DNA from: Atractiella rhizophila
Taxonomy: Eukaryota
Length of the DNA stretch: 64,000 nt
Assembly: GCA_021432655.1 (NCBI GenBank)
Contig: MU271190.1
Span: 15,866 to 79,865, forward strand
Direction: 5' to 3'
Under the pieces are notes generated by a model. That model ran no database searches. It saw only the letters and a program-made list of their open reading frames with translations, and was not told where the DNA came from. The position numbers and the translations under genes were made by a program. Below, in pieces: positions 14,573 through 51,469 of the stretch (position 1 is the first letter of the stretch; every line of letters starts with the position of its first letter).

Positions 14573-14611
14573 TACCAGGTTACACTAGTACCCATCTTTT
14601 TCTCGGTCAAT

Positions 14612-17395: not shown

Positions 17396-17620
17396 GCCAC
17401 TTGCGCACTTGCGCGTTTCCACTTTCGTCGAGCGTGTTCTGGAACTGTGGCAACTTCTCTTTTGCCACAGGGATCTTAGCTATAAAAGCCTTTCACCTGC
17501 AAGTGCGAGACTCACACTTATTTGTTATCTCGCACTTCGCAGGTAATGTAGTTCCCTTACACACTAAATGCAACACACACTTATTTGTTATCTCGCACTT
17601 CGCAGCGCTCGCACATTTGT
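17396..17620 (+). promoter_or_regulatory. TATA + hairpin-exon / duplicated-3'-end intron module, instance 3 (homologous to 51247-51469)
   Basis: TATAAAA at 17481. 10-bp stem at 17501-17510 and 17528-17537. 30-nt direct repeat at 17513-17542 and 17576-17605. GTAATGT...GCAG intron at 17543-17605 (63 nt). Upstream CTGTGGCAA/TTGCCACAG inverted repeat. Confidence 0.7.
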
Positions 17621-18687
17621 CATGTCGGTTAGGATTATAGGAGGAATATGGAGCAGAATATAGTGAGCTGCATGAGACGGCCATTTGCTGAGCATGAGGT
17701 GTTATCTTCGAGTTTCGAGACGCGCATTCTTCGTTCTTTGCGGTTGCTTGTATTGTTATCGTGCTGTCAAAGATATGTAGCCCCTCACTTGGCCTCACTC
17801 TGACGATTTGAAGTCTCTAGACTAGACCGAAATAGGCTGAACGATTCACAATGACCTGGACGACTCAGCTCATCGCCCAGGGGGTGATGAAATAAAACAC
17901 TCACGGAGTTCAAACGCGACTTTAACAAGTCCACATATAGGCGACCACGTCAACGGAACGTAATTTACTTGCTCTTGCCCAGCATTCTTACGCTCGCGGT
18001 TCCTGATCTGCAAGCGCGTCGTCTATGTGCTGAAGCTCTCTGATGTCCACTTCCTGATGACTTTATGATGCTCTTCCCCAGCTGGTAGAAAGACGAGATT
18101 ATGCACGAATGAACGTCCCCATTGTAACTTACTAATGGAGCGCTCACGACGCGAGAATAAACAACACAGAGGCAGAAGCAGCTGTCGAGGAGGGTCCAGG
18201 CATGGAGGCAGCGATGGCCGAATGGAATCAAGGTGACTGGGGCTGGATGACCGTATAGCCTCTCCAATCTGCAGCAACCATATCCATCGTACCATCCTCA
18301 AACCCAGATCACCCCAATACAACAAAACAGGAAGAAGTGGAGACGAGATTTGAAGATTATCTCCATCTGATCCGAGCTTACAGAGCAAATGGTCCGCACA
18401 GAAAATAGGTGGGGCACATAAAGTATTCGACTAAGAAGTTGGGGAAGGATTTGTAGGGGATTGAATTTGGAGGAAACCGATTCCTAAATTTCATGGTAAC
18501 AATGTCCAGGGATCGGTATGTAAATTTAAACACAAAGTACGAGAACAGGATGGTGCGAGAATGAGGTATGCGAAAATACACCGACCTCATGCCTCAACAG
18601 CAAACCCATAGAAAGGACTTAAGCGACAGGGGAACCGAATGTATGAGTGCTAGATCGATGCGTAGGAGAAGGGCTGGAGATGAAGAG

Positions 18688-19221
18688 TCATTTACATTCA
18701 GGTGAATGCTTTGAAAACATACGGTGGTGATGGAACTCGTTGTGATGGTCTATTGACCTTTTCTCGCTGAAGCTGCTCGAGCTGCTCCACTGAGGATTGT
18801 ATTGGTTAAAATTAATTCTGTGTAGCATGCAGGACTTACTCTTTTCCGCAGCTGACAGACAATGGCAAGCAGAGGTTTGGATGGCCTCTTCAATGACCCT
18901 CAGTCTTTCACCCACGTTGACGTTCTCTAAGCCTGTCGTTCGAGCTCTGATCTCCTGCATTAAGACCTCCCCCTGCCTATCGACCTTCTGTTCAAGTTGT
19001 GTGATTTGGCGAGATTGATGTTGGAAGAGCTGCTGTAGTTGAATGACATGTTCTCCTTGCCCATCGACTTTCCATTCAAGTCCAGAGATCTGTTGCGACT
19101 GTTGTTGAATCTGTCTCGATAGGTCTGAGATGAGAGGGAGTAGTTGGGCTACAACTGCCGAGGCGACATCGGTGACTGGTGGAGGGACTTGTGGCGTACT
19201 TGTAGACTGGTGCGAGGACAT
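18688..19221 (-). CDS. Hypothetical coiled-coil protein (probably spliced after ~18838)
   Basis: Q-rich heptads with an internal duplication (QQISGLEWKVDGQGE / RQITQLEQKVDRQGE). GTAAGT donor near 18838. Confidence 0.5.
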   Translation of the reverse strand: MSSHQSTSTPQVPPPVTDVASAVVAQLLPLISDLSRQIQQQSQQISGLEWKVDGQGEHVIQLQQLFQHQSRQITQLEQKVDRQGEVLMQEIRARTTGLENVNVGERLRVIEEAIQTSACHCLSAAEKSKSCMLHRINFNQYNPQWSSSSSFSEKRSIDHHNEFHHHRMFSKHSPECK

Positions 19222-19917
19222 AGCTGCTATTGTTATTGGTTGAGAGGGTGGAGACGAGTAAAAAAGGGGAGTGGAGGTTATTATTTTTGATCTCGTGATC
19301 AGTCACAAAAGGGGAAGGTGGCACACTCGCAAAGGTTCACGGAATTTCTCATCTATATCCTATACTCCTATCCTGAGATTCATCAGTTCTTGGCATGAGT
19401 CATAAAACGCACTTTTGAGCGCTCATACGCCCTCACCAGGCATATTGAAATGAAATGAGTTACACCATCTTACCGCATATGTTGCGCCTTTCTGAAGCTG
19501 CAAGGTAATTTTATTTTGGAGTAGTGAGAAAAGTGTTTTGCAGTGGACTCGAACCCTTACAGGGGTCACAGTAACCTTGCGAGTGGGTGGGGGCCTGAGC
19601 TTAGTTGTTTTGTTCTTAATCTCAACGAGCGAGAAGTGTTTCAGCACGTGATCTCTACCTCTTTCACGGCACTTGGTCAAATTTGGCGTTGACGAACTTT
19701 CGACTTGTGCGACCATTCTGACTAAATCCAGCTTCTGTGGAAGGCGTGTGACTTTCACATTTGGCCAGGGCAGGGGTTACGTGGGTTATATAAGCAGTTA
19801 AGGTGCGCTAGATCAACTCTGTTCTGTTGGCTGTGGGAGCTGTGAACTCGTCATGGGGAAAGGGCTGATGCTCTTCGCTGGGAGCACAGGAGGTCAGAAA
19901 CTTGACTACCCACTACG

Positions 19918-22900
19918 ATGATAACCCATCGACTGACACCATCCCCTTTCTTTACCATTCTCGCATTAATCTCGTCCGTTCATATCCACCCCACATCGGC
20001 AGAACCCCTCACCATCTCCCTCAACTCTCCTTCTTTCACCTCTTGCCTTAACACTCGCTCCGAGTTCGCGGCTCCAGCAGAGCAGCGGCTGGAGATCTCC
20101 CAGTTCTACGCCACCTTTGACACAGGACAAACATCACCCGGAGACTCCGGCGCTGGGGTACCTGTTGGAGGCCTTTTTGGGGGAATATTGGGGAATGGGA
20201 AGAAGGATCTTCTCCGTCTTGTTGGCGTGGGGACGGTCGGAGCCCAGTCTACTGGTTTTTCGAGCGAAACCAACTTCCTGTCCACGTTCGTTGTCGATAG
20301 CTCCGTGCTCAGTTTTCAGACCTTCAAGAATCAAAGCGCCTTATGCCATTCCATCCGCGAACCTGGATTCACAGGTTCAACAGACGGGGGGGACGCGCTA
20401 TCTGGATGTCCCTACGGTCCGGGCGATATTGCAGTGGGAGTTACCATCCCGCTCGATTATTCGTATCCTTTAACCACCATCAACTCTCGCTTCTCCGTCC
20501 TCGATACGAGTACACCTCCTCTCACACTCGCATGTTGGAATGTCGCCGTCACGCCTTATTATCCGCATGGGTATTACTACAAGCTCATCCTCTGGCTGCC
20601 AGTTTCCCTCGTCATCTGCTACTCCATTCTTCTCATTTCCGCTCGCGTTTACGCAGCCTACACATCTCTCCTAAGCGAACGAGAAACATTTCTAGCAGCT
20701 TCGGACGATGTTCAACAACAAGCAGATCAAGGAAGTAAGGTCGGAACGGTTTGGTGGAGAGCTTGGAGTGGCTTTGGGTTACAGGATAGCGGCAGTCTCC
20801 TCCGATTTGAGACGCCTGGGGTGTTGGATATCTGGGGAGCGGTTATTTGGACGTGGATGTTGGGCACTGTCGCCGTCAACTGGCCTGGCTTTGTCTGTAC
20901 GTTGACGCGACTCTCTTATACCTCTCTCATCAACGTATCGCAGATCCCATCCTTGCTCAAGTGTCCTGGTCTGCACTCCTCTTTAGTACAGCTCTCTTTC
21001 CTTCTCTCTCCTTCTGGTGACGATAGTTTACTGCAGATACAAGCCTCCCTACGGATCGGGAGAAATTGCAAGATCCCCTTGTTACGAGCTACAACCCTCC
21101 TTCAGGATACGTCACCCAATTCAACGACCCCTCCTCCCCAATATACATCGCACCAGATGTTCCTAACGTGCTCTCCAATATCGGTGTTGACGGTTCTATA
21201 TCCACCCATGGCATTAGCAATTTTGCTTATGCGATTGGCCTTCGTCCAGAGGATCTATTCCCAACAGCCATAACCTTCTGGCTCATCCTTGTCGGCGCTG
21301 CCATCGTCCTCAGCATTGGCGGTTACGTCATCCGTTTCGTCCATCAAAGAGTCACGAAAGGTGGGGAAAGTGGCAGGCGACGAGATTCGACAGAATCCGA
21401 TGGCTCACAGAGACCCGCCCCAATCCCTCTGCAAGGTGGTATGAGGAAAGAACACTCGGACGGGTCTATCATGGCTGCGTTCAGCACGGATGTTCTACCA
21501 TATGGATCGAATTCGTTGGGTGGTAGTAAGGCATTTGAACCAAAAAAGCCGAACGGGAAGAAGATGTGGAGATTAGGCGCAACAGGTGATGACTATTATA
21601 AGGAGACGATGGGAAGTTATCATTGGAGACTGCTTCACGGTGTGTGCTCTCATCTATCACCAGTATAGCGTAGAGTGCTGAGCAGGAAATAAACAGGGAA
21701 CGTAGTTCGACTTATAATCCTGTTCCAACTGCCTCTTACTATCCTTGCAGTCTATCAGATCTATCTCCACAGCAAAGGAATTGGTTCGACAGCCGCCTTT
21801 GCAGCCGCATGCGTCTCCCTCGCCATTATATCCGTCATCGCTCCTGTCTACATCTCCTTCTTTGTTTACCGCACCCCAGTGGATACACTTACGATGACCT
21901 TCCCACCATCCTTGCATTTGGACCTTTCTACAACGCCTTCGCGCCGGGATGCCAGCTTTTCAGTGCCGTCAGATTCGGCACAAACCTCTTTATTGGTGTG
22001 ATTGTAGGGAGCTTGCAAAGCCAAGGGACAATCCAGGCTGCCGTCATACTCGTAGTGGAGATCGCAGATACTTTGGTGACAGTGAGTAAACTGCTCTTCC
22101 TCCGTTGCTGCTTATCAATGGGTTCCGTGAACGCAGAGTTTATGGCTCCCATGGGGAGAAGATGCAGTAATGGGTCCCTTGGCATTCGTTTTTTCCGTCG
22201 CCAAAATAATCATCGGCGTACTTCTTGTCATTATCAGTCCAGACGTCAAATCCAGTCAAACCGCTATCGGCTGGATCACCTACGTCATCCTCCTCCTGCA
22301 AGCTCTCACCTACCTCCTCATCGTCCTCATCTTCTGCGTCAAATTGGTAGAGCTTGGTCTGCGAATATTTGGACACGTACCGTTCGATGAATCCGGTAGG
22401 AAGAGCTATGGAGGACTAGGTGGAGTTCTCCGGAGGATGGATACAGGTGCCAAGGGATCAACTGGTGGCAAACCCCGTCCTAGCCGTCGACGTCGACGAG
22501 ACCCTTTCGAACAAAGGGATCGACAAAGTGGAAGCAGCTCAGGACCAACAAGACTCATGCTGAAAACATCAATGGGGCACAGCGATAACGCAACTAGCAT
22601 ATCAGGTCAGAGCGGATTTCTGCCAGGCGATGACTACGAGGATAACGGGTTCATTATGTCTGCCATGTCGACAGGACAGTGGGCCAGACCAGTCAGCGGT
22701 CAATACAACGGCTACCTACCACCCGCCAGTTATTCTCAGGATCCGAAGCATAGACCTCCACCAAACCAGTGGAGTCCTAGTCCTTCAGCACCTCCAACCC
22801 AATCCACATCCGGCTTCACTCGAGTGGGAGGATATAAAGCCACGAACAACACTCCTTTCCTCCGTCAAGGCGAAATGGGAAGATATACTGCTGACGATTC

Positions 22901-23315
22901 CCTTGGAGCGAGGTTTGGATCTACCGAGGCCAAATCACGTCCGGGGCTCCCTGTCACGTCGAATCTGCTGTCTAACAGCGCTCAAAACTCATCTAAGAGC
23001 GCTGCCGCTCTCTTGTCACGCCAGGATTCTGACACATCTACTCCTGGAGAAGAAACCAGAACGGGATTCTTCGGTCGATTTACTCGTCCTCGGCGGGCGA
23101 GGAGAGATCCAGAACTGTCGAGCGACGAGGACACGGATGGAACGGACGAAGGGGAACCTTCTTCTCCTCCTCGCAGAACCTTTTTCAATCCTTTCGCCAG
23201 ACGAGGTCCGCGATCGCCTCAGGAAGAGCCCAGTTCCCCTGTTGCTGCCACTGGGTTTGAGGTAGTAAGGCGGCCACGTCCGCGGCCGAATCCTCCGCAA
23301 GATGGACCATCCTAA
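19918..23315 (+). CDS. TRP-like / flavin carrier (FLC/Pkd2 family) membrane protein, multi-exon
   Basis: Signal peptide and Cys-containing ML-like N-domain (GCPYGPG, TLAC), many TM segments, 'VNWPGF', 'FGPFYN.F', and a disordered C-tail. Several GT-AG introns. Confidence 0.8.
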
Positions 23316-23775
23316 GTCATGAGATAACAATAGCAATGGACCTTTCGTGTAATTCATTTTTAATTGCTTTCCTTCACTTCATATACTGTTTGATATATTG
23401 CATTGCTTAGTCCCTCCGACGACATCACTTTCGCATAGCTTCTTTTCATAACTAAAGTCACAGAACAGGAAGCAAGGGATGTCAACCGTGATAAGATAAG
23501 TACCGTTAATGAGATGGATTGCATTACGTGGATGCCGTGATTTACAATGATGGATTGACCGTTCCTTAACATGCAGCCCAGAGAGAGGTAATGAAGACAA
23601 AATTTATCGACAGAGAAACACAGAAATGAACGTTTGGAGAACTGATTCGACAGGGCGAATATATATATATACTAAAGAGATCTTTGGGTAGCGTTAACTG
23701 GAGATGCCGATGAGGTATTTAGAGTCAAAAAGGGTTAGCAAGAGGACAGCAAGGAAGGGAAAGAAACTGTGGTCG

Positions 23776-26232
<2,457 letters not shown>

Positions 26233-26373
26233 GGCTGGCTTGTGGCAGGGACTCGCAATAAGAAAGGCAACGAAAGCCTTCAACAAGGACGTATGTTTTG
26301 AATGACTCAAGTTCGAGCCTTCCAAAGAGCTCAAGACAATCAAAGCCAACCGTATGACAAAGGTGAGGTGTGC

Positions 26374-26411
26374 GAGATTCGAACTCTGCGCGAAGGCAGT
26401 AGGTATATAAA
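26374..26411 (+). promoter_or_regulatory. Putative U6 upstream elements: reverse B-box-like motif and TATA box
   Basis: Reverse complement of 26374-26386 is GAGTTCGAATCTC. TATATAAA at 26404-26411 lies ~30 nt before U6 +1. Confidence 0.55.
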
Positions 26412-26433
26412 TTACAAGCAGAGACTTTACTAC

Positions 26434-26458
26434 GCCTCCCTTCGGGGAGTGCATACGA

Positions 26459-26490
<32 letters not shown>

Positions 26491-26553
26491 GGCCCCTGCA
26501 TAAGGATGACACATTGCGACAGAATGGAAGCCTCTAAGGAGGCAAATTTTTTT
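26434..26553 (+). ncRNA. U6: U6 spliceosomal snRNA
   Basis: 5' stem with TTCG loop, AAATTGGAACGATACAGAGAAGATTAGCATGGCCCCTGC..AAGGATGACAC core and T7 terminator. No intron. Confidence 0.97.
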
Positions 26554-27150
26554 ATAGAGACAATCTTTTTTTATAACCAATCCTTTGCCCATCACCAGAA
26601 TCTGGTTCCCAGGAAAAGCGGCAACTCTCCCATCAACTGCAAGCGCAAGCGAGCAAGCAAGAGTCTTGTTTCGTAAACTCTTATCCCCGCTGTCTAACTA
26701 CTTAACTACTTCGGGAATGCTCAGCGTGTTTCTATAATTGTCGCAAGGATAGGCTAGCCAGTAAAGTGCCCAGCAGTTCAAGTTCTTTGTTTGATAAGCC
26801 ATCTGATATCTTACTTTGGGGACAGAATGACATTCGCTCCGCCAGAAGGACCACCACCACCTCTTCCGTTGAACCTCCCGTTCTGCCATCCCGTCGATCT
26901 TGCCCGGTTTCACAAGCGAGGATGGATGCCCATCGATTTAGCTGCTGTTTCTCTCCCCGATATACCAGATGTTCACGAGCATTTCCTCCAGCTTTTCGAC
27001 CTCGGCAAATCTTTCTTTAACGAACCATTATCGTCGAAAGAAGCGTACGATTTCAGTGGTGTAGAAGGATCCGAACATGGGTGGAGTCGTGTCGAAGGGG
27101 AGAAGGAACTGCTGACGGTTCGTTCGAAAGAGTCAACACCTCCGGTCCTA

Positions 27151-27175
27151 GCCTCCCTTCGGGGAGTGCATACGA

Positions 27176-27207
<32 letters not shown>

Positions 27208-27269
27208 GGCCCCTGCATAAGGATGACACATTGCGACAGAATGGAAGCCTCTAGGGAGGCAAATTTTTT
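27151..27269 (+). ncRNA. U6: Second U6 copy lacking the upstream TATA/B-box (possibly an assembly duplicate)
   Basis: Identical core. Starts exactly at the duplication junction. Confidence 0.7.
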
Positions 27270-27542
27270 ATAGAGACAATCTCTTTTTATAACCAATCCT
27301 TTGCCCATCACCAGAATCTGGTTCCCAGGAAAAGCGGCAACTCTCCCATCAACTGCAAGCGCAAGCGAGCAAGCAAGAGTCTTGTTTCGTAAACTCTTAT
27401 CCCCGCTGTCTAACTACTTAACTACTTCGGGAATGCTCAGCGTGTTTCTATAATTGTCGCAAGGATAGGCTAGCCAGTAAAGTGCCCAGCAGTTCAAGTT
27501 CTTTGTTTGATAAGCCATCTGATATCTTACTTTGGGGACAGA

Positions 27543-28631: not shown

Positions 28632-28748
28632 GCTGTTACGACGATTGTGACTCGCGAATTGAATTGTACGTTACTAAGTTACAGGGAAGGAAGTACTTTA
28701 CATTACATAAGTGTTCACTCGCACTAAAAAGATATGGAAGAAGAATCG

Positions 28749-30062
28749 TTATTCGTGCCTGTTACGTTTTCTTGAACTGCCGTCATCATAATCTCCTCCG
28801 CCCATACCTCCTCCATTGAAAAATTGACCTCCTGGCTGCTGGAATCCTCCTCTTCCACCTTGAAAGCCTCCCCTCATGCCCATGGGGAACCCACCACCGC
28901 CCCTCCCCCTCATCTGGTTCATGAATGCCTGGGCGACGGGATTATTCTGGGTGAAGTTCTGAGGCATCATCCCCTGCTGAGGCTGCATGTTCATCATTCC
29001 CATCCCTCCTCCCATTCCAGTATTCATTCCCATCATCGGGTTCATCGGTCCGCCGCGGGCCATCCCTCCCCCTCGCCCTCCTGAAAATGGTTGCTGCATA
29101 GGTCGATTGTTGTATCCACCACCGCTACCAAAACTCTGATTGTTGTAAGCTCCATCGCGGTTCCCACGGCCACGTCCACCTCCAGCTCCATCACGCGCAG
29201 TCGGTTCTATAAACTTGTCAAAAAAAAACGGCACCAATGGAACAAAGTTCTGTACCTTTGGGTAGAGTCCTGAAAGGGTTTCCTTCTCTCGAAGATCCAA
29301 CACTGATCTGGAGGCGCTTGCCTTGAAAATCACTGCCATAACCATTGATTCTGCACCGCACCGAATGAAGCAGAACCTTACGTGCTAATAAAATGATTTC
29401 TCGCAATCTCGGCTTCTTGAGAGTTACTAAATTCAACGAAAGCGATGCTAAAAAGCGGTTAGGATAGGCGTTCATTTGAAAGGTGATGACAAACCCTTTA
29501 GACTTTCCGTTCACCTTATGCTCTGAGAACGTGATGTCTTTATGGTCAATAGAGATTCCAAGTTTTTGAATAGCAGCGCGGATGTCTTCGTCCGTTGTCC
29601 ACTCCAGCGCTCATCAGCTTTATGGATTACATGGGGAGAAAAATACATACCCAGTGAAGCTCAGAAAGATAGAGCCCGTTGTTCACAAGGTTCTGTTTAC
29701 TACCAGAGGGCTAGACTCTCATCAGTGACACGCTGTCGTCATAGACGGAGTGGCGTACATTTCTCGAGTCCCCATTAGAGAAGCCATTCGACGGAGCTGC
29801 ATTGGCTGTAAAATCCTCAAGTTTTGGCACTTTGGAAGGACGAGAGTCTGCAGTCGGGGACTGCGAGCGATTAGAGGAATCAAAATCCCCACCAGAAGGT
29901 ACTTCCCCTCCACCGTCGTAAGCATTTAAATCACCGTAGAGGTCGGAATCCTGGTTCTCGAAATTGAGCCTCCCCTGCACATTTCTTCATAGAACTCACG
30001 CCAGCTGGTTGTTCCACATCTCCATAGATGTCCAAATCGTCATCTGCAGTGCGAGGAGCCAT
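28749..30062 (-). CDS. CFIm68/CPSF6-like RRM protein with RGG/Met-Gly-rich tail, multi-exon
   Basis: DDLDIYGD N-terminus, [16 protein letters not shown]...[14 protein letters not shown] (CPSF6-type RRM), and an RGG-rich C-terminus. Confidence 0.8.
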
Positions 30063-30898
30063 AGTTTCGAAAAGCGAATTGGTTGCAACGTATGATCCTA
30101 TTGATAAAAGCCATATTACGCGTCTAATATACAGGCAACGAGCGAGACATCGTCAGAACTTCTCGACAGCGGAGGAATTCACAGGCTACAGAACACAGTT
30201 TGACAGACTCTTGAATTGTATGGACATGCTGGGCCTTCTAACATGTTGTGTAGGTAGCGCACAACAGAGACTCCTCCCTTCTTTCCACCCACCGCCTCAA
30301 ACCCCATCATCAGCTTGCCAAAAATACTCACCGTTCGCTATGTGTTTGCGTCACAAGGATGTTCACGTCTCCGTCGCTACCGTTTCTGTTCTGCGAAGAC
30401 TTCGTAGGATTTGGCAGGCAGAAGACTTTGTTGGTTATGCACATTTCTTCATAGAACTCACGCCAGCTGGTTGTTCCACATCTCCATAGATGTCCAAATC
30501 GTCATCTGCAGTGCGAGGAGCCATAGTTTCGAAAAGCGAATTGGTTGCAACGTATGATCCTATTGATAAAAGCCATATTACGCGTCTAATATACAGGCAA
30601 CGAGCGAGACATCGTCAGAACTTCTCGACAGCGGAGGAATTCACAGGCTACAGAACACAGTTTGACAGACTCTTGAATTGTATGGACATGCTGGGCCTTC
30701 TAACATGTTGTGTAGGTAGCGCACAACAGAGACTCCTCCCTTCTTTCCACCCACCGCCTCAAACCCCATCATCAGCTTGCCAAAAATACTCACCGTTCGC
30801 TATGTGTTTGCGTCACAAGGATGTTCACGTCTCCGTCGCTACCGTTTCTGTTCTGCGAAGACTTCGTAGGATTTGGCAGGCAGAAGACTTTGTTGGTT
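29976..30898 (+). repeat. 461-bp apparently identical tandem duplication
   Basis: 29976-30436 and 30438-30898, separated by one extra A. Confidence 0.95.
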
Positions 30899-40153: not shown

Positions 40154-40432
40154 TCTGTACTCTCTTTCAACTTTACTCGCATTCTCCTCACAAAAATGCA
40201 GGTCGTTTTAAATACCGCCTTGCAATTGATATTTACTCTTCTTTTGCTGTCATTGTCTCATTGTCTCCGTCTCCTCTCCCTCCGGGCCGAGAGCATGCCG
40301 GAAGAAAGGCTCCGCTGGACCACAATTACAAACAAAAGAGAAGACGTCGACGAAAGCCAACGCCTGCAAAACCCTTCCTCCTCCAACCTCAGCTGATTAG
40401 TCCTTAGTCTTTCCATTGATATTATTGCAAAG

Positions 40433-41967
40433 ATGGCCACGACAATGAAAGCTCTCGTTGTGAAGGGGCCGTTTAAGGTAGCAGTAGAAGATCGTGATAT
40501 TCCAGTTCCCCAATCTCCAGGGGATGTGATCGTCAAGGTGAGCTATTCTCACCAGATAGTGGTTAGAACTGATCAAACGCTGATTCAAGGTTACCACTTC
40601 CGCTCTTTGTGGTTCAGGTTAGTGACTTCTGCAAAGCCAGTCAAAACCACGGGCTAATCGGCATCGCTTAGACCTCCATGTCTATCGTGGGCGTGAAGAT
40701 AATGCAACCTGGAATTTTGTAATGGTATGCGATCCTACAGATGTTGGATTCCAAGACTCAAGCGACGTCCCCAGGGACACGAGTTCGTGGGAGTAATACA
40801 CTCACTACATCCTCAAACTACAGTCAAGAGTTTCAAGATTGGCGATAAAGTGATTTCGCCGTTTACGATCAGTTGTGGCGACTGCTTCTTCTGCCAAAAG
40901 GGCTGGACCAGTCGGTGAGTTGCGTTCCGCGCTTATCTCAAAAGAGACTGACCCTCGTCACCTTGTAGATGCGAGCAGAGCGTCCTGTTTGGGTGTCCCA
41001 AACTTGATGGGGGCCAGGCTGAATACGTCAGGGTTCCTTTGGCAGAGTCAACGCTTTTCCATGCGCCAACTGACATCAAAGAAGCCAATTTGATAATTTT
41101 GGCTGATATTCTACCTACCGGTCTCTTTGCAGCCAAGAACGCTTGGAGTATGCTCAATGAGGAGGAGCGTAAAGATGCAATCGCCGTCGTTCTCGGTTGT
41201 GGTCCAGTAAGTCGTTTTCTCACTCCCCAAACAAATGAGATGGAACTTTTGTAGGTCGGACTTTGTGCTATCACCGCTGCTGTTCAGCGCTTTTCTAAGG
41301 TCATAGCAATTGACAGCGTTCCAGAACGACTAGGTAAGCAGCTCAAACCTTCGGCTCTTAGAGACATTTACCAAATTAACTAGCTCAAGCTGAGGAACAT
41401 GGAGCGATCACAGTCAATCTACAGTCATCGTCTCCAACCCCCAAAGAGTTCATTCTCTCTCACACGAACGGAAGGGGAGCCGATGCAGCTCTCGAAATCG
41501 TTGGTTCTCCTGACGCTCTCAAATTAGGCATTGATCTAGTACGGAATGGAGGAGTCGTGGCCTCTGTTGGTGAGCAAAGGCATTCTATTTTCTTTTCATG
41601 GCTAAGGGGCATGCCACAGGGGTGCATGGCCCGAAGATCGAACTGGAAGGTAGTTTATTGTATAATAAGAATGTCAGGTTGCAATTTGGTCGTTGCCCTG
41701 GTCAGTATCGTTTTATTATAGATCGTTACTGAACCATGATAACAGTTCGAGCGTTGTTTCCGGAGGCTCTGGAACTCTTGAAGAAAATTTCAAAGGAAAG
41801 TGATCTGTTTGAGAGATTTGTTCAGAAACGTGTTGGGCTCTCCGAGGCACCTTTGGTATGTCCTTTCGCTAAATGTGCATGGACGATGCACTTAACAAGC
41901 ATGGAAACAGTATTATCAGTTATTCAACGAGCAAAAAGTCGGTAAAACAGTTTTCAATGGCGTTTGA
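40433..41967 (+). CDS. Zn-dependent alcohol dehydrogenase (MDR family)
   Basis: LCGS-DLHVYRG, GHEFVG, CGDCFFCQKG...C, LADILPTG, VLGCGPVG. Confidence 0.93.
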
Positions 41968-42059
41968 ACGAAGCCTTGTATTGAAACAGTGCAAAATGAA
42001 ATGAGATCCTTGTCTAGTACACTGTGAAGACATTCTTACATACAAAAAGCAAAAGGACT

Positions 42060-43403
42060 TCAATTCCCACCTCCTTTACTTTCCAACGTGCAAACGTCTA
42101 GCGTAGTCTGCACACCCTTCCAAATCTTCTGTTCTGCGACCCTCATCTCCTTCACCGCCTGCGTGAGCGCTGGCACCTGGGATTGCGCTTGAGATGGAGG
42201 TGGAGGCACCATCGGCGTGCGTTGTGGGCGTGAGAAAGCCGTCGTCGGCGCTACGGATGGAGAAGGGACGTTAGGTGGCTTCGGGAAGGACGGTGCTGTT
42301 ATGGAAGACGCTTGTGTTGGTTTCGAGCCCGTTTGCTCCAACATGCCAAGGACGTTTGCTACCCAATTTGCGTTCGTAAGATTGGAGAGATCTGCTGGAC
42401 TTTCAAGATGCTATTCACGTCTCTCAAGTTAACCATGGATACAACACTGTTAGAGTTATTTAGACTCACAGCTTTAACACGCTTGTATGCAGCCTCCCTG
42501 CCCCTCTGCTCCCTAATCACCTCTTCGGTCCCAAATTTATGGTATATTCGTGTATCGAATATCCGGAAGAGAACCTGATCGACTCGGAGGAAGAAGCGAG
42601 CAAGGATGAAAAAGCAGCTGGGCATTACTCTCTTCATGGAAGCGACGCATAAGTGTATACACCAGTGAAAAGGCAAAAATGAGGCTTACAATTTTCACGC
42701 TAAAATATGAGGTTCCGTTGTCCCCTAACTCATCTTCGAAGAAGGGAACGTCATCGTAGAAGAATATAGGTTCTGGTACTGTGAGAGAAGCTAATGGAAT
42801 GCCTGGGTGCGAAGGAGGAGGAGGGGTGAAATTCTGTAACCCCTGTCATTTCTGAGACATAGAGGGGAGAGGATGTACGCTGGAGGAAGGAGAGCAACGT
42901 CCTGGGTAACAAGTACTATACGTCCAATCATATGGCTTCTGCACAACTGCAGCCTGACTCTCTGGCGTCGCGTTGGCAGGATTCGATCTTCAAACCGAAA
43001 ACACGATGACCACGTTGCACCATTTTGGTACAGAAACAGAAAACGTACCTACCCCTTTCCCACTCATCGGCATAAGCAACCTTGATTCCCGTCCCTTCTC
43101 CAACCTCAACCTCTCTCAGCGCCTCCAATCCCTCAATCTCATACTCGAATCCGAATTGCTCATTCGATATTCTCAGGTAATTCTCCCCAAAGACGATTTC
43201 TGGTAGGTTAACAGGCACGGTTTTTGAGATCCTACCCATGGATTACGAAAGTGAGCAATGAACTGGACGAGAAGAACCTACTCTTCAAGTTGCGCCGAAT
43301 TCGAGATCGGTTTCTTACGCGTCTCTATCTTCCAGCCATTGACGAGTATAGAACGCACAGCTCCGTCCTCAACCACCTCAGGCTGCTTCAAGTTGGTCGC
43401 CAT
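42060..43403 (-). CDS. TIP41: TIP41 (PP2A/Tap42-interacting regulator)
   Basis: GWKIETRKKPISNS, LPEIVFGEN, YDWTYSTCYPG, PIFFYDDVPFFEDELGDNG, RVMPSCFFILARFFLRVDQVLFRIFDTRIYH. Confidence 0.95.
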
Positions 43404-43888
43404 TAATGCATTTCCGATCGTCGATCACAACTTCACAAGTCAGTGCACAGGCACACATGACACAGGACATGTGTATTTGTATTTAAGTATTTAACAAAAG
43501 CAGAAGGATTATTGAGATGCAGGTACACGAGTATATAACATACGGTGCTTTATTTGCTTATTCGGATCGAATGAAATCAAGTAAGGCAAAGAAGGGGGGA
43601 GAAATGGCATAGGTACTGTGACTTGAAGATGGAAGAACGAGAACAGGAACGAGGCAAAGAGAAGCATGGTTACGTTACTTTGTTGGAGGAAAATGAATGA
43701 TTCTGTGCTTTTTTAATCAACAAGCGTGAATTCGAATACTAGGATCCTAGGAGAGAAAGGGATTGAGACCAGACAGACGAGACCCAAAGAAATCAAGACT
43801 CATAAGAAAAACAACGTTAAGATCTAGATGATTAGAAAGCTATCGACAAACCGCCTCGAAAACAAGAATACCCACACATATGCAACAA

Positions 43889-46225
43889 TTAGTCCGCTCC
43901 ATTGCCATGGGTATAACTGCTCCCTTGATACCCCTCATCTTCCTCTCCGATCTCAGCGGTCCTTTCCCCCATCTTCCTCGCATAGATAATACTGCTATCC
44001 TCCAACGCCGGATGCCTCGCGTGAGAATGGGGATGTGGATGAACCGGTCTCCTCTGCCTCTGCTCCACGAAGTCAGGTGGCGGTTTCCGGATCTCCACTT
44101 TCTTCTCCAAGCTCCTCGCAGGGGTGAAGTACAGTGGCGCGACAGGTTGAACCAAGGGATGAGGCGACAGTTCATATTCAGAGGCATAGTAAGTAGGGAC
44201 AGGCTGGAAAGGGGGAGGAGTAGGCGTGAAGTATCCACTTGTCATCGGATATGGATGATGGTAGACTGGTTGTGGAGGAGCGTAATAGGGATCGAAATAT
44301 CCGTAACCTGCTGGTGGTGGAGACATGACCTGTTGTTGAGGAGGGACAGACGCGGCGTAAGGTGGAGTAGGAGCGAAGAAAGCGGATGGGGAGGCAGGCA
44401 GTGGTTGCGGGTATTGAGGGGAAACGTAAACGGGGTAGACTGGAGAAATGGTTGGAGGAGGAGGCAGCACCGGAGGCAGATAAGCAGCGGTGGCAGGAGA
44501 AGCTTCTCGCATGAAAGGCGGCTCTTCCAATTCCACGTAAGTCGGTCGAGGTGGAGGCGCCTTTGCCTTGGGTTTCGAAGTGGATGCTACGGGCTCCATG
44601 ATCTCCACCGTCGTAGTAGCGACCATGGCTGGAGACTGTACCTCCTCCTTCTGCGCGATCTCCTCGGCAGGCGGGCCGGGGAAGTCCTTCTTGCCTTCCC
44701 TCAGCTTTTGCCAGCTGTTGCCGTGTCCGAGCTTCACTGATGACTGTAACAACGCCTTCCCTTCCCCAATCGAGGCTTCGGATTCAGGCTTGACCTTTAA
44801 CCTAAACCGCCAACCTCCCTCCCTCTCCCTATACCCTTCCCTGACCCTCGCACCCAACTTAATCCTCCCAAGCACAATTTTAGAGCCAATCTCCTCCTCT
44901 CCCTCCCTTGCACCAGGACGGTCAATGACGAAGGCCCTACTATCGCGTTCGTTAAAGAGGAATGGTACGGAGGACTTGACGGTCCATGCCGGTTCAGGTC
45001 TTTCTGAGCGGTCCATTCCAGTTGGAGTGCCTTGATATGAGAAGGTGCGGCGACGAAGATTTGAAGGGTGATAGGGGAGGGAAGACAGCTTTGGAGGACG
45101 GTATGGCCTCGCCTGAGAATCCGCCGCCTCTTCCGTGGAGTCTGCCGGCAGAGGAAAGTCGACTGAGGAGCGTGATGGTGCCATCCTCCCGCCCACGTTA
45201 TGAAAGCCTCCTCTCCCCCTTCCCCTTCCTCTTCCATACACATAAGATCTACGCTCCTCCTCTCCATCATAAAGATCGTGACTCCACGCTTCCTCCTTCT
45301 CTACCTCCTTTTCTTGGATCCCTTCAGCCTCACGCCCCCGTTCACGATCTACCATCCTCCTTCCTCCCCTCCCTCTCCCTCTCCCTCCTCCACGCCACCA
45401 ACTGCTCAGGCCCTTCAAATCATCCTCCAGGAGCCGCTCATCATGTGTCCAAAACCTTCCCAATTTCGGAACATAGGACGGATCAGTCGAGAGACGCTGA
45501 GTGTACTTTGTTCTCGGAGAAGGTGCACGTGGACCCTCTCGTTTCTCCTTCTGATAGACGGCTTCTTCCGTGATCGCAGTGGGAGGGATGTCAACAGAAG
45601 CGGAGGTGGATGGTTGATTCGACACAGGCGATTGAACAGATTTCGTCGTCTCTTTGAGCGCAAGCTTTCGTTCCTTCCTCTTCTCTTTCTGCCTCAACTT
45701 CTTCTCCTTCCTCTTCTGCTCCATCCTTTCCTCCTTCGCTTTCCTGCTTTCCTCCTTGCTCGCCTTTCCATTCCACGACTCCTTCGTTTGCGTTTGTCTA
45801 TCCTTTGACGTCGAAGAAGAGTTGACAAACGTGTCAAACTCGATGACCGGGAGAGAGGTATCCTTCCCGTCCTTCTCCATCACTGACTCGGACCACAAGG
45901 CCAGCCGGTTCGTCTTAGGGGGTGAGGCTGGGCCAGCCTGAGGAGGAGGCGGCGGAGTGGCTATTTTAGCTCTCCTAGGAGCGTCCTCCACTTCCTCTTC
46001 CTCATCCTCATCCTCCGACACCGCGTCACTCACGAACGAATGCTCGGAATCGTCCCTCATCGAACCCGAACCGTCTGCGAGGCCAACGCCAGCGCCATCG
46101 CTCTCGCTCTCGCTCTCGTCCATCACCCCCCTCCTGCCCCTACGTGCCCTCCTGTGCTTAGACGCAGCTTTCGTTTTCAGGTCGTCGCTATTGTTGTTCC
46201 TCAACGAAGAGGCGGGTCGTGACAT
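43889..46225 (-). CDS. CASC3/Barentsz (Btz domain) exon-junction-complex protein
   Basis: DPSYVPKLGRFWTHDER and WSHDLYD Btz motifs, RGG segments and a Pro/Tyr-rich C-terminus. Intronless. Confidence 0.85.
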   Translation of the reverse strand: MSRPASSLRNNNSDDLKTKAASKHRRARRGRRGVMDESESESDGAGVGLADGSGSMRDDSEHSFVSDAVSEDEDEEEEVEDAPRRAKIATPPPPPQAGPASPPKTNRLALWSESVMEKDGKDTSLPVIEFDTFVNSSSTSKDRQTQTKESWNGKASKEESRKAKEERMEQKRKEKKLRQKEKRKERKLALKETTKSVQSPVSNQPSTSASVDIPPTAITEEAVYQKEKREGPRAPSPRTKYTQRLSTDPSYVPKLGRFWTHDERLLEDDLKGLSSWWRGGGRGRGRGGRRMVDRERGREAEGIQEKEVEKEEAWSHDLYDGEEERRSYVYGRGRGRGRGGFHNVGGRMAPSRSSVDFPLPADSTEEAADSQARPYRPPKLSSLPYHPSNLRRRTFSYQGTPTGMDRSERPEPAWTVKSSVPFLFNERDSRAFVIDRPGAREGEEEIGSKIVLGRIKLGARVREGYREREGGWRFRLKVKPESEASIGEGKALLQSSVKLGHGNSWQKLREGKKDFPGPPAEEIAQKEEVQSPAMVATTTVEIMEPVASTSKPKAKAPPPRPTYVELEEPPFMREASPATAAYLPPVLPPPPTISPVYPVYVSPQYPQPLPASPSAFFAPTPPYAASVPPQQQVMSPPPAGYGYFDPYYAPPQPVYHHPYPMTSGYFTPTPPPFQPVPTYYASEYELSPHPLVQPVAPLYFTPARSLEKKVEIRKPPPDFVEQRQRRPVHPHPHSHARHPALEDSSIIYARKMGERTAEIGEEDEGYQGSSYTHGNGAD

Positions 46226-48494
46226 GTTTCTGCTCACTCATGTACTCAGCTCCACTCCTGCCTGAACACGTAGCGCGAAGGGAAACTCACAAGGGATATA
46301 AATGGTATTACTCGATGCTATGAACTTTTGGACTCCAAATAACGCGACGGAGTGGTTGAGGTCGTCGTTTCGTGACGGAAAAGTTTGACGGACTGTCGTT
46401 CGCCACCCGCAGCAGAAGCGAGTCACGAATCACCAAAATCTTCCTGCTTTCTGTAAACAACCTCAGGATGGATTGGGACTTTAGCTACGATTTGATTTAC
46501 GATGACACTTTAGGACGGTTTATGAGGAGATGAGGCTGAAATCACGGGCTCATAGTGGAAGGAACAAAGAACTGCCGGATGGGATGGCGTTTCGTGAGCT
46601 TCTGATTTACTGTAAAGCTTCAAGGAGAAGGGCATACGTCTGTCGTCGTGCATTCAAGTTATCCGCAATGGAGACGAGACGAAGGTTGCTGAGTTGCTGA
46701 CAAGTGCATGAGGGGCAGCGTAAAAGTTGGAAGCCCTCCTGCCAGCCAACACTCTGTCATATCCTGCTCAGAATCAGCGAATCACATTCCCTGATTATAT
46801 ATTTGAATTGCAATTGTTCGAGTGCTCTTTTATGATGACGTTCGTTGTCGGAGCGCTTTTGCACCAAAAATGTGCAGACTCGGAGAGCCAACCACTTTGG
46901 CTCCAGTCTTCATCCCAGTTACCCCAGCCGACAGAATGTAAACTATATCCTACCTGCTCTAAGCTGGCCTGGTCATGCGTAAACGGTGACTTTTATGGGG
47001 ATGGACGTGCGCAAGTGAACTGACTAGCATATGCTGGCCGCAATAAGCCACGCCATCGGAACCCTCGTCATCGGACTTTTTTAAGTGTTGACTGTCCCCA
47101 ACCACGTTCATTCGAAGGGAACTGTCCGTCGGTAGAGAGGATTTGGAGGCAGCGCTTGCAGAGAGCACGGCTCGAGCAATGATTTCGTGGATGAGAATAG
47201 CAACGAGTCTACTACAAGCAAGTAATGATTTGAAAGTGGAACGGTGGAAGATTCAGGTCAAAGACCTTTCTTTCTTCGATCTTTGAACCCTCCAGCAGCT
47301 TCTTCCAACTATGAATACCAACACGGAACGGTCCACTTGAAAGAATTGACAGGCAAATGCTGTCTAGAGTGCTCATTGTTGCTGTGAACGGATGGAAGCA
47401 TCACCGGAAGGCCATTGGCTGGTGGCTCCTGTGAAAACTTCGTGAACACTGCATGATCTGTACATCATCGGCATGGCACATTGACGATTCAGTCAACGAG
47501 AATCCGATTTGGATGCGCATCCAAGATATCCAAATAACTTGCTTATCGGTGCCTCATGACATCCTAGTGAGAGTCGGAGAGCTGGTGTTCCATGGTCTTT
47601 CGGCAGTCATAAAGAGAAGTTCTTGGATATGAAAACAAAGGAGTAAGAAAAAAGATGACGCCTCACTAAGGCTGTAGAATAAGAATGTGGTAGCTGGTTC
47701 GTTCTTTTTTTTGGACAGCGAGATGACTGAGTGGATAGGAGGTAGGTAGGTAGGCTTGTACTTTACATGCCCAGATGCCTCTTGACTCAGACACGTGGCT
47801 CTGTTATAAACTTAAAAGCAGAAGGGCACCAGCGTCTGAGGTGGAAGGCTAAAAGTCGGCGCAGCTTTGTTTGCGTTGCGTACAGTGGCTCAGAAACTTA
47901 TTGGAGCCCTGCGTTCTTCACAGCATAGGGCTCTTAGCTCTGCACTTAGCAGTGTTATGAGCCTAACAATATATTGCAACTTGGAATGTGGATATGTTCA
48001 GAACTTGACTTTGATCTGCCTACTAGGTTGAGAGTTCGAGAGATAGGACCGCTGTATATGAAGGAGAGTTCGTCATAGTGGGGTAAGAGTGCATCAGGGA
48101 TAGAGAGGGTAGTTACGAGAGGTATAGCAACTGCTTCAAGCGAAGCTATAAACATTCCAAGTACACAGTACCTGTACACTTGTGAGAAGCAATGCTGTTG
48201 GTCCTCAAACTCGCCAATCCATTTCCACAACTGGTTTGCAATCCTAATGTTTAAAATGGCAGCGCTCTTAGATGTGGTTTGAGCGCTGTCAAAGAGCAGA
48301 TTCGAGGACATGATTTACTCTCGGCAGATCTAACCGAAAGGAGCCATACACAGTGTGTCTTGTGGAGGCACACAAAGGGGTATGGGGAATGGAGGTGGAG
48401 TTAGTGAGAACTCAGGCTGACCAATTTTGGTTTAATAAGACAGATGCGATAATAGGAAGGAGGAGGTAGGACAGATTAAGAGATTGATGTGATC

Positions 48495-48665
48495 TGCGCC
48501 TACGCCGGTCCTTTCGTGACTTTTGAGGGGTGCTGTAACAGCCAAACCTACGATGGCAGCGCCGACGAGAATGACCCAGACGCTGACGGCCGTTGAGAAT
48601 ATGTCCTCTAGACAAAGGCCAATCGGGTAGGCAGAAGCACTAATGCCATGGTGAGTAGCGCATAT
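48495..48665 (-). pseudogene. Diverged internal fragment of the TRP-like gene (cf. 21200-21365)
   Basis: HGISASAYPIGLCLEDIFSTAVSVWVILVGAAIV vs HGISNFAYAIGLRPEDLFPTAITFWLILVGAAIV; shared AGTCACGAAAGG. Confidence 0.8.
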
Positions 48666-49190
48666 CCCTATCCATAACGCACCCCATCGCTCACATACGG
48701 AACACAGCGAGATAAGCAAACAAACTGAACGTTGTTCTCTCCGAGTTCGCACTACAGATGGAGTCAAAGGGTACAAACCAAAGTTGAGGACAACGTAACA
48801 AGCTTCGAACAACAATGCTGGATAACGATGCTTAGAAGAATGTATTTGACCATCAGTTAGATAATGTCTTCTCAGTTTGAGCGCGTGAGTTTTGCGTGAT
48901 CCATGTTGAAAGTGGTTTTCTGCAACTGCAGGTGCAGGGCGAAACGAGCCTGAATCCCCTTTGATCGTTGAGTGGAGAGATGAAAGTGCCGCGAAATTGC
49001 GATGGCATGTCACGAATCACATCGATGACATCAATGACAATACAATATTCAACACAAGCAGCTCCAGGAACTCTAGAATAACTTCGTTCACGAGAAGAAC
49101 AAATCTCTTATATAAGCGGAACCCCATCTGTTTATAAGGCACGGCGTGTCGAAGTCTGAATCTCCCTCACCATCAACATCGCGTTCCATT

Positions 49191-50525
49191 ATGCAGTCCA
49201 CAGGGAGAGATTCGTCTGACTGCAACACGTTGAGATTCCGTCTCGCTGTCAGGAGTAGAAGTCTGCTAGACTTATTGACTCGAGTGCGACCACGGAGGTC
49301 GTCTCACACCTCCGATAGATCCCCTGTTGTCGAAGATGCTCCTACGCCGTATCTTGCACCATCTAGCGAAACTGTCCCTACTATCTACGAACGTCCTACG
49401 ACTGATAGGCTTGATACAACTCGATTGCTTCCGGTTCCCATTCCCACCTTGACCTTGGTGAGTCCATGCGAATCTGTTGACAACGAGGCATTTCCCCTTC
49501 TGCGTCGAGGTCCTCCTTCAGCGCGGAGCTCAGGGGGCTCTCCCTCGACTCCTACCGCAGAGCTCACGGTTACTCGGTCAGAATCCTGGATCAGCCGTTC
49601 CTCATCCGATGGTGCAACACTCTATCCTCGACTGGACGATAATCGAGAACAAATTTTTCTTGAAGCAACCTTAAGCATTGGCGATATTCACACTTCAACA
49701 GGTTCCTCTCATCGCCCACTTGGCGCAGAGTTTTCTATTACCAGGGATAATCTGCCTCCGACATTTGCGTCGACTTGTTCTCGATCTCCAGCCATCCAAG
49801 TCGACGATGCGGGAGATAATCCTGCCGGAGATTTTGTGACATCTGGTCTTTTCTTCGACAGTCTGGACAACAATTACCCTCTGGTTGATTCTGGTTTCGG
49901 TGAATTCTCTCAGAGTTGGTCGCCAATACTTCGCTCTATCAACGAAACGCTGAATTCTGAGCGAGACCTTTTTGATACTGACGTTTGTCACGAGGAATTT
50001 ATCCCAGCCCCAGGTGCCCAGGCTGTGGAGGATTCAAGCCCGAATGAAGGCAGTTCCCATTCTCCTACAGTCGTTTTGGAACCTTTGAACGCCATCAAGG
50101 CTTCACCGCATGGCGGGATTCTCACAATCTACCCAATGACGGACGATCTTATCTCTTACTGGGACCATCAAAATAAAAAGCTTCACACAAAGGTCCCTCG
50201 TTATCCTTCAGAAATGTTTCATTGCGTAAAAACGAAACAGATGAAACATCGGTGGAAGAGACTTGTGTTTGATAAGCAAACCTACGTAGAAGTTCGACTA
50301 GGGGGGAAGGTTGTCCTGCCCTCAGATGGTGGTGAAGGTGCGCTTTCGTTAAGTTTATGGTATGTGATACGTTCTTATATGATGCAGTAGAATGGTTCAA
50401 AGGACAGCTGCTACACATCGGTTTGTGCTTCCTCAAGTTGCCCACTCTCCACTGAGCACCTTTCCAACAGGCAACTGTCAAAATCCGTCCTTCAAGTTTC
50501 TCTCGGAGGACTTCACGACAAATGA
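49191..50525 (+). CDS. Hypothetical Ser/Pro-rich protein
   Basis: ~400-codon ORF after TATA-like motifs (49108, 49132). Likely intron from 50360. The 3' end is uncertain. Confidence 0.5.
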
Positions 50526-51246
50526 CCCAAACAACCCACCGATGCTTGCTGGCGATCCTTTCGTCGCAAGGCCCATCAGGGCGAGGTCGGTCTTTTCTCT
50601 TGCTCTGCCATGTGGCTGGAACCCATCTGACCGCGATGGTAGGAAACACATTGCCACCAGCAGATGCCCCGCTCACGACCAACAAGAAAGTCTTATTGAG
50701 CTATGTCGCTTACAGGTTGAGCTGGTCAACTCTCGTTCTCGGTCCAAGACCACCAAGCGCAGCTCCAAGATCAGGTCCAGGACCAGCAAGTCTAGAGTTA
50801 GAGCCTAGAGCGGTAGAGTGACGTTGGTTGGCCTACACTCTTTCTCTTTATGTTCGTCTTTTCAACCTCACCCGTCCAAACTGATTCCTTCATCGTGATA
50901 CAGTCAACTGGAATGTTCGAAGTCGATCACACTTTTTATTTCCTTATTCTTCCTTGACTACACATGGCAGTGCCTCAAGAAGTGTATGATGTATGATGAG
51001 ATGTATGAGCATGCTAGGTTGGCTGTATCCTTGTGGCGAATGGTGGTTTTCCGAATTGCATGAGTCCAAATCAGGGTAGGATGGTATATCTGTAGAGTAT
51101 TCAAATGAATATAGTAACTTTAAGAAGCCTGCCGCGCGCCAGACCATGCTTCCATTACCTCTGGAGTTTACCCTGAACTCGAACCAGGTCAGGATCACGT
51201 GCTGAGGAATCCTTTTCGTTGATGAGCTGAGCTGAGGTTTTCATTC

Positions 51247-51469
51247 ACCACTTGCGCGCTTGCGCGTTTAGTTTCCTTCGAGCGCTTTTTGGAACTGTGG
51301 CCAATCTTTGCCACAGGGATCTCTCTGTTATAAAAGCTTGTAGACATGCTAGTGCGAGATTCATACTCAGTGTTATCTCGCACTTCGCAGGTAATGTAGT
51401 TTCCTTACCAACTGAATGCAATTGATACTCAGTGTTATCTCGCACTTCGCAGCGCTTATACATTTGTCA
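51247..51469 (+). promoter_or_regulatory. TATA + hairpin-exon / duplicated-3'-end intron module, instance 4
   Basis: TATAAAA at 51329. 10-bp stem at 51351-51360 and 51375-51384. 28-nt direct repeat at 51363-51390 and 51425-51452. GTAATGT...GCAG intron at 51391-51452 (62 nt). Confidence 0.7.

Follow-up and report, generated by a model that had tools for sequence, protein, structure and literature searches.

The 64,000-nucleotide stretch of the Atractiella rhizophila genome analysed here (contig MU271190.1 of assembly GCA_021432655.1, positions 15,866 to 79,865 of the forward strand; referred to below as the window) contains four short units in which a perfect direct repeat, termed X, frames a candidate intron. 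The first copy of the repeat (X1) stops immediately before a GT donor, and the second copy (X2) ends with the AG of the acceptor. As judged from their sequence, the four units are very probably solo long terminal repeats (LTRs) belonging to three families of LTR retrotransposons. The reading favoured here, to which a probability of roughly 0.45 is assigned, is that X represents exon 1 from the transcription start, and that strong-stop complementary DNA (cDNA) made on the spliced leader lands on X2. This would restore the intron and overwrite X2 from X1. The two copies probably stay identical through reverse transcription of spliced RNA, which rewrites the intron copy at each jump.

Two of the units, A and B, are homologous and carry the copies that change together. 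An exact-repeat scan and the splice-like motifs around the repeats define the following features.

17513..17542, plus strand: X1 of A, the "exon" copy, 30 nt, presumed exon 1 from start to donor
17543-17575, plus strand: spacer of A, 33 nt
17576..17605, plus strand: X2 of A, 30 nt, exact copy of X1
17543..17605, plus strand: GT..AG unit of A, 63 nt, made up of the 33-nt spacer and X2
51363..51390, plus strand: X1 of B, 28 nt
51425..51452, plus strand: X2 of B, 28 nt, exact copy of X1
51391..51452, plus strand: GT..AG unit of B, 62 nt, made up of a 34-nt spacer and X2

A 19-mer common to both loci occurs exactly four times in the window, always on the plus strand (at 17524, 17587, 51372 and 51434), and not once in 100 shuffles. 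Within A and within B, X1 is identical to X2. When A is aligned with B, the same four changes (C>T, T>C, a 1-nt gap and T>G) appear in both copies of X. The spacer between the copies is also homologous, yet it differs at approximately 6-7 of its 33-34 positions. In both loci GTAATG follows X1 directly and X2 closes the GT..AG unit. An earlier note on this DNA had claimed that the same loop changes occur in both copies of each element while the remainder of the intron diverges, and the alignment, with three substitutions and one indel, confirms this. It had also predicted that the copies would group by locus. They do so in this one pair, with identity inside each locus and the four shared changes between them.

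Exact direct repeats of at least 12 nt at a spacing of 35-400 nt number 54 in the window. With two satellite zones set aside (10.4-11.1 kb and 63.2-64 kb), only four of at least 20 nt are left, and all four take the form X-AG|GTA...X-AG|, which exceeds what chance would give. The two further repeats lie on the minus strand and are unrelated in sequence to A and B. They are referred to as instances 1 and 2.

3469-3575, minus strand: X repeat of instance 1 (X of 36 nt)
3540-3575, minus strand: X1 of instance 1
3469-3539, minus strand: candidate intron of instance 1, 71 nt
3469-3504, minus strand: X2 of instance 1
13378-13523, minus strand: X repeat of instance 2 (X of 57 nt)
13467-13523, minus strand: X1 of instance 2, 57 nt
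13379-13466, minus strand: candidate intron of instance 2, 88 nt
13379-13435, minus strand: X2 of instance 2

A four-way alignment found no global homology beyond that of A with B, and three families are represented. A relaxed scan of the window (identity of at least 19/24) gave 17 rows, comprising the four known pairs (each 24/24) and 13 from satellite, with no decayed X pair among them. In instance 2 the identity is 57/57 inside X versus 12/21 in the 21 nt just upstream. This step from 12/21 to 57/57 is a further and independent indication that homogenisation is ongoing and that its edges are fixed. Together with the changes shared by A and B, it upholds the earlier argument that a one-off duplication is insufficient; some form of active copying is needed.

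The outer borders of the four units are as follows.

17369..17622, plus strand: element A, a probable solo LTR of 254 bp with ends TGACAAA...TTTGTCA (7/7 inverted), delimited by an unbiased scan and by contig divergence
17364-17368 and 17623-17627: 5-bp target duplication TGTCG of A
51240..51469, plus strand: element B, a probable LTR of 230 bp, homologous to A and with the same 3' end ...TTTGTCA
51235-51239 and 51470-51474: AGGTT on both sides of B
3461..3696, minus strand: instance 1, a probable solo LTR of 236 bp from an unrelated family, with ends TGTTGAA...TTCAACA (7/7 inverted)
3456-3460 and 3697-3701: target duplication TTGTC of instance 1
13373..13661, minus strand: instance 2, an LTR-like unit of 289 bp from a third family, with TG...CA ends

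The unbiased scan covered the whole window for a 5-bp target-site duplication (TSD), TG...CA and perfect 7-bp inverted ends, at lengths of 150-700 bp. It returned exactly two matches, 3461-3696 and 17369-17622, both of which bear the repeat, and the same scan gave five matches in all in 20 simulated windows. The homology between A and B covers approximately 230 bp and stops abruptly at ...TTTGTCA (17622 and 51469). Contigs of runs X6 (three contigs) and X1 (run names, not to be confused with the repeat copies) part from the window sequence upstream of 17367-17369, and a contig of run X2 does so after 17623. One contig of run X1 is identical to A over 187 nt. Dispersal with the same borders was examined for A only, where it was found. 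A contig of run X6 bridges 13371 to 13663, with three other letters in place of 13372-13662, which fits the absence of the 13.4-kb unit in a relative.

Since no internal retroelement parts were found among the 108 translations scanned in the window, the "LTR" label is based on the ends, on the target duplications and on dispersal. The earlier note had spoken of exon and intron copies. A reading of these as parts of host genes gives way to one of bounded mobile elements, with TG..CA ends, 5-bp target duplications and copies with other flanks. Because the units are bounded in this manner, A and B are taken as separate insertions of diverged relatives from one retroelement family, and not as paralogous host genes. 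An Rfam scan of the window matched nothing at the four units, only two U6 genes.

Several other candidates were considered in this part of the analysis. A 372-bp pair (14201-14573 and 19642-20014; 96-98% identity, 5441 nt apart) has element A between its copies, and it was rejected as an LTR pair enclosing A, being without TG..CA ends. It represents a duplicated gene start: besides a TATA box and an ATG it contains an intron of 87-88 nt, which contigs from runs X2 and X6 show in spliced form. Three LTR-like candidates (560-831, 20833-21177 and 29141-29302) have 6/7 inverted ends, which is the chance level of the simulations, and no repeat structure. In one contig of run X6, 9970 is followed directly by the start of an A-type LTR (17367), a sign that this LTR has also inserted beside an F-box paralogue.

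The units have a common layout. The unique 3' region (U3) is followed by a short strand complementary to the end of X (and, in A, B and instance 1, to the donor as well), X1, a spacer of 31-35 nt, X2 and a terminal segment of 6-17 nt. A TATA box is present in the U3 of three of the four units.

Instance 1, minus strand: U3 121 nt, X 36 nt, spacer 35 nt, terminal segment after X2 8 nt
Instance 2, minus strand: U3 138 nt, TATA box at 13561 with its first T 38 nt before the first base of X1, X 57 nt, spacer 31 nt, terminal segment 6 nt
A, plus strand: U3 144 nt, TATA box TATAAAAG at 17481..17488 with its first T 32 nt before X1, X 30 nt, spacer 33 nt, terminal segment 17 nt
B, plus strand: U3 123 nt, first T of the TATA box at 51329 and 34 nt before X1, X 28 nt, spacer 34 nt, terminal segment 17 nt
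17606..17622, plus strand: terminal segment of A, 17 nt directly after X2, presumed end of the unique 5' region (U5) and integrase site

The repeats, their edges and the element borders are directly established. At its 5' edge X begins at C|A in the context of X1 in three of the four units, and at T|CA in A. The sequence that follows X1 is unrelated to that following X2 (2/8, 1/6, 5/17 and 7/17 matches). The sequence before X1 is unrelated to that before X2 in three units (6/21, 4/21 and 5/21), with 12/21 in instance 2 as noted above. Because the sequences after the two copies are unrelated, X2 with its terminal segment resembles a processed leader and not a second tandem unit. It has also been observed that the spacers of B (51409-51424, plus strand) and instance 1 (3505-3523, minus strand) have a short motif in common, ACCAAC, a gap of 3-4 nt and ATGCAAT, located just before X2. 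The corresponding place in the spacer of A reads AATGCAAC. This motif could be a shared functional site, such as a branch region or poly(A) site, or it could be due to chance.

The GT..AG units range from 62 to 88 nt across the four instances, with the donors GTAATG, GTAGGT and GTACGC, and all end in AG. Six host introns read from spliced contigs measure 47-88 nt and have the donors GTATTC, GTACGT, GTACAG, GTGTGT, GTGCAC and GTATAA. The four units thus fall within the range of host introns in their GT...AG borders, length and donor. In three unrelated families the repeat has its 3' edge at AG|GTA, and this appears hard to explain without splicing. The AG of X2 does not add independent evidence, because it is copied from X1. 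Inspection by eye for a CTRAY-like branch site revealed a good match in instance 1 (CTGAT, across the border of spacer and X2) and a plausible one in instance 2 (CTCAC, inside X). By their borders, length and donors, the GT..AG units are candidate leader introns.

In predicted folds of all four units, the end of X1 is paired with a strand that lies immediately before X1, and it is at this level that the hairpins are established.

17495..17510, plus strand: upstream strand of the A hairpin, pairing with 17528-17544 including the donor G|GU; presumed end of U3
Hairpin of A: -26.7 kcal/mol, z -7.2
Hairpin of B: -20.9 kcal/mol, z -4.1
Hairpin of instance 1: -29.8 kcal/mol, z -6.2, with a stem that covers CAG|GUAG
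Hairpin of instance 2: -22.4 kcal/mol, z -5.3

None of 200 shuffles was as stable as the hairpin in any of the four units, and the stem spans the donor (CAG|GU) in A, B and instance 1. In A and B the upstream strand starts 14-15 nt after the first T of the TATA box. The distance from a TATA box to the transcription start is usually approximately 30 nt, and for this reason the upstream strand would not be transcribed from its own promoter. The strand that the earlier note had described as the 5' arm therefore probably lies upstream of the transcription start and would be transcribed only from the 3' LTR. For RNAs that start at X1, the degree of structure does not exceed that of shuffles (z +1.4 for A, 0.0 for instance 1 and -0.9 for B). 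It follows from the presumed start position and from these unstructured RNAs that the hairpin is expected only in transcripts entering the LTR from upstream, as in the 3' LTR. In the minimum-energy folds of longer RNAs of the 3'-LTR type, the stem forms on X1 in A and instance 1. A general fold with X1 masked and X2 free was rejected, as it holds for A and instance 1 and fails for B.

The proposed replication route combines these features with an inferred transcription start, splicing, path of strand transfer and benefit of intron retention. Transcripts started in the 5' LTR would lack the upstream strand, which would leave the donor free and allow the leader intron of 62-88 nt to be spliced. 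In the 3' LTR, the donor would be transcribed together with the U3 strand and could be locked in the hairpin. The U3-dependent hairpin would in this way confine the use of the donor to the 5' LTR. The spliced leader would consist of X followed by the terminal segment, and the minus-strand strong-stop cDNA would be its complement. This cDNA would be exactly complementary to the contiguous X2 and terminal segment of an unspliced LTR transcript. The landing template could be the 3' repeat (R) region or a co-packaged unspliced leader. Once landed, the cDNA would extend through the spacer, X1 and U3, resulting in a complete LTR with its intron, and the new X2 would have been templated by the exon copy of the parent. 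With repeated cycles, X1 and X2 would be kept the same within a lineage while the lineages drift apart.

Under this model, the co-variation of A and B is explained because identity between X1 and X2 is renewed in each cycle as the lineages drift. The edges of the repeat would be sharp because they correspond to the transcription start at the 5' side and the exon-exon junction at the 3' side. The lack of homology after the two copies would be accounted for by the same process. Of the processes that the earlier note had put forward, an RNA-templated one is retained as the favoured reading. Conversion at the locus is not, the element's own reverse transcription being the simplest source of the copying. 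Neither a trans factor nor selection for identity of the loop, both of which had been suggested, is needed.

A number of observations weigh against this reading. At the level of the elements, the 5' end of B is TTCATTC, without TG, and instance 2 has no matching target duplication (flanks GGTGT versus AGCCA). Reverse transcriptase, integrase and gag were found in none of the 108 translations scanned, out of 190 open reading frames (ORFs) of at least 90 amino acids in the window, and no full-length element or primer-binding site was found there. Instance 1 has no TATA box. The strict co-variation depends on a single homologous pair, A and B. The 19-mer of X gave no matches in metagenome, genome or viral contigs, so that no outside copies were found; a conserved U3 palindrome of A and B likewise gave none in metagenome contigs. 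All four X pairs in the window are perfect, and for this reason maintenance in situ is indistinguishable from young insertions. As regards splicing and folding, the branch-site matches in A and B are weak (only CTAAA and CTGAA). For the contigs of four runs, none of the 15 joints listed (there are 25 more beyond the listing) falls at the four units, although contigs drop rare forms and cannot show starts. The stem of instance 2 ends 9 nt short of the donor, and in the longer 3'-LTR-type RNA of B the minimum-energy fold pairs the U3 strand with the identical arm of X2 and not with X1.

The LTR evidence would be the same if the units were solo LTRs in which no splicing takes place. X would then be a tandem repeat that owes both its origin and its homogeneity to strand transfers, misaligned or premature, as the repeat expands and contracts in cycles. 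The GT after X1 would have at most the role of a U1-binding site in the control of polyadenylation. Template switching of reverse transcriptase is a common source of repeats inside LTRs, as in retroviruses, and this counts for such an origin, as does the final AG of X2, which is simply copied from X1 and not independent. A donor in R that acts independently of splicing has a precedent in foamy viruses (PMC3694450, in the part of the source available). This explanation offers no reason why the 3' edge of the repeat should lie exactly at AG|GTA in three unrelated families, or why the 5' edge should lie 32-38 nt after the TATA box at C|A. It also predicts a variable copy number, whereas all four elements have exactly two copies with spacers of 31-35 nt. 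Repeats formed without splicing are accordingly considered unlikely, if still worth bearing in mind.

Two further explanations, each regarded as improbable, dispense with retrotransposition. In one of them the units are host introns of 5' untranslated regions that were born by tandem duplication, the copies being kept alike at the locus through gene conversion or because a shared binding site or an RNA structure is under selection. The perfection of all four X pairs, with no decayed pair in the window, and the strength of the hairpins are compatible with this, and the diverged copy (12/21) of the upstream 21 nt before X2 in instance 2 resembles an old DNA duplication. Conversion or selection could also act as an extra process, or the insertions may simply be young. 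The transposon borders, and the occurrence of units elsewhere with other flanks, argue against host introns; none of the four units has a recognised gene downstream, and the homology of A and B ends at the end of the LTR. Conversion tracts of 28-57 nt edged at a start-like site and a splice junction would have to be a coincidence in three families, and the unrelated sequence after the copies is unlike the AGGT tandem-duplication model. The other explanation invokes small non-autonomous DNA transposons, similar to miniature inverted-repeat transposable elements and mobilised for example by an integrase-related transposase, with a promoter and a mini-intron, the repeat being identical only through youth. 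Terminal inverted repeats of 7 bp, target duplications of 5 bp and the lack of retroelement genes nearby agree with it, and the identical 187-nt copy in run X1 points to recent activity. The combination of TG..CA ends, a 5-bp duplication and an internal TATA-driven unit is, on the other side, the classic picture of a solo LTR. Youth alone cannot explain the four changes shared by A and B or the 57/57 versus 12/21 identity of instance 2, and cut-and-paste copying has no mechanism of homogenisation.

Comparison with known systems places the proposed landing of cDNA on X2 in context. The four units resemble the solo LTRs of fungal Ty3/gypsy- or Ty1/copia-type elements in their TG...CA ends with a short inverted repeat, 5-bp duplication, size of 230-290 bp, internal TATA and dispersed copies with the same borders. 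They differ in that R/U5 holds a complete GT..AG unit, the last 28-57 nt of which repeat the segment before the donor. A literature search, with subscription journals outside its coverage, found no description of a fungal LTR with an intron, or of an LTR in which exon 1 is repeated, in the portions of the sources available.

The Tf1/sushi type of retrotransposon is self-primed, with the first ~11 nt of the transcript complementary to the primer-binding site just downstream of the 5' LTR. In the units described here, both complementary segments (the presumed U3 strand and the end of X) belong to the LTR itself.

Foamy viruses have their major donor in R, and 5' polyadenylation is suppressed by the binding of U1; at the 3' LTR, 13 nt of U3 change the fold so that the donor is masked (PMC3694450, in the part available). 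The likeness is that a donor lies inside the LTR downstream of the start and is hidden by U3 nucleotides that are found in 3'-LTR transcripts only (PMC3694450). In predicted folds of the present units, a 16-nt U3 strand pairs across the donor. The foamy-virus acceptor is far downstream and the function shown in the same part of that source is control of polyadenylation (PMC3694450), whereas in the present units the candidate acceptor, too, lies within the LTR, preceded by a copy of the presumed exon 1. In engineered split-intron retroviral vectors, the intron is rebuilt in the provirus by LTR duplication (Ismail et al. 2000, as summarised in the available part of the review PMC3182074). Unlike in the four units, the 3' LTR of these vectors was given the donor and the acceptor was positioned outside the LTR, with the aim of splicing out the packaging signal, according to the same part of the review (PMC3182074). 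The aim of these vectors was not the retention of an intron through spliced genomic RNA, unlike the proposal made for the four LTR units.

In Penelope-like elements, an intron is located in the terminal repeats. These retroelements are similar to the four units in that they keep spliceosomal introns despite replicating through RNA (PMC4209133, in the part available). They differ in having a telomerase-like reverse transcriptase and no integrase-type ends, and no such genes were found in the window among the 108 of 190 ORF translations scanned. Introners and introns born from tandem duplication of AGGT are likewise similar, as they have a repeat of exon sequence at the 3' end of the intron and involve mobile DNA (PMC12130899, in the part available). 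An introner is an inserted element that forms the intron in its entirety, with one splice site in or beside the target duplication, and its repeat is that short duplication, whereas the repeat here is 28-57 nt. The four units are therefore not introners: the GT..AG unit of 62-88 nt lies wholly inside an element of 230-289 bp, and the 5-bp target duplications are outside it and without a splice site. An intron formed by tandem duplication of AGGT was also rejected, as that model needs the same sequence after both copies and the sequences here are unrelated.

The host is a fungus, and the window contains FunK1-type kinase, F-box and NACHT-TPR genes, TTAGGG-type repeats and short introns. The protein clusters closest to the kinase ORF are fungal (Basidiomycota or Zoopagomycota), with no finer placement. 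Other features of the window are as follows.

8342-10051: F-box-like ORF with very high summed depth of many X6 contigs that are 90-95% alike
10410-11110: interstitial telomere-type array, with (CCCTAA) x 15.8 at 10523-10617
10758-11082: 63-nt satellite (5.2 copies) beside the telomere-type array, together with a 116-nt repeat 332 nt apart
19540-19560: resembles a transfer RNA (tRNA) T-arm, reverse complement GGTTCGAGTCC
26434-26551 and 27151-27268: two U6 small nuclear RNA genes, 79.9 bits each
29976-30898: perfect tandem duplication with a unit of 462 bp, 2.0 copies, 100% identity
60386-61132: patatin-like ORF just upstream of the NACHT-TPR gene
60954-64000: NACHT-TPR (NLR-like) gene that runs off the window

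The F-box-like ORF belongs to a large paralogous family, because of the many similar X6 contigs. The region of the telomere-type array may be the relic of a chromosome end or of a fusion. The U6 genes lie inside a direct duplication of 99-100% identity with a spacing of 716-717 nt. The TPR part of the NACHT-TPR gene consists of 120-nt units that are 77-87% identical and present in 6.2 copies. ARAGORN called no tRNA anywhere in the window.

Elements that replicate via RNA should lose their introns, yet many fungi express genes without introns poorly. It is possible, though tentative, that the LTR retrotransposons of this fungus have solved this "intron problem" by means of a leader intron in the LTR, a duplicate of exon 1 as landing pad and a U3 hairpin that limits the donor to the 5' LTR. 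If this is true, an LTR equipped with an intron as well as a "processed" version of its first exon could be spliced and still transmit the intron. The design would be kept because spliced genomic RNA still passes the intron on. Since three families unrelated in sequence share it, the design would be either ancient or convergent, and its sharing would suggest that there is strong pressure towards splicing, be it for expression, for export or to evade RNA surveillance. Because the repeat has sharp edges, testable predictions follow for the transcription start and the splice junction. As the units mimic promoters with introns in the 5' untranslated region, they can mislead gene prediction and studies of intron gain. 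If the proposal holds, it would represent a new replication trick of LTR retrotransposons and a natural counterpart of the engineered split-intron vectors. It would also be the second case, after foamy viruses, of a U3-dependent fold that discriminates the 5' LTR from the 3' LTR.

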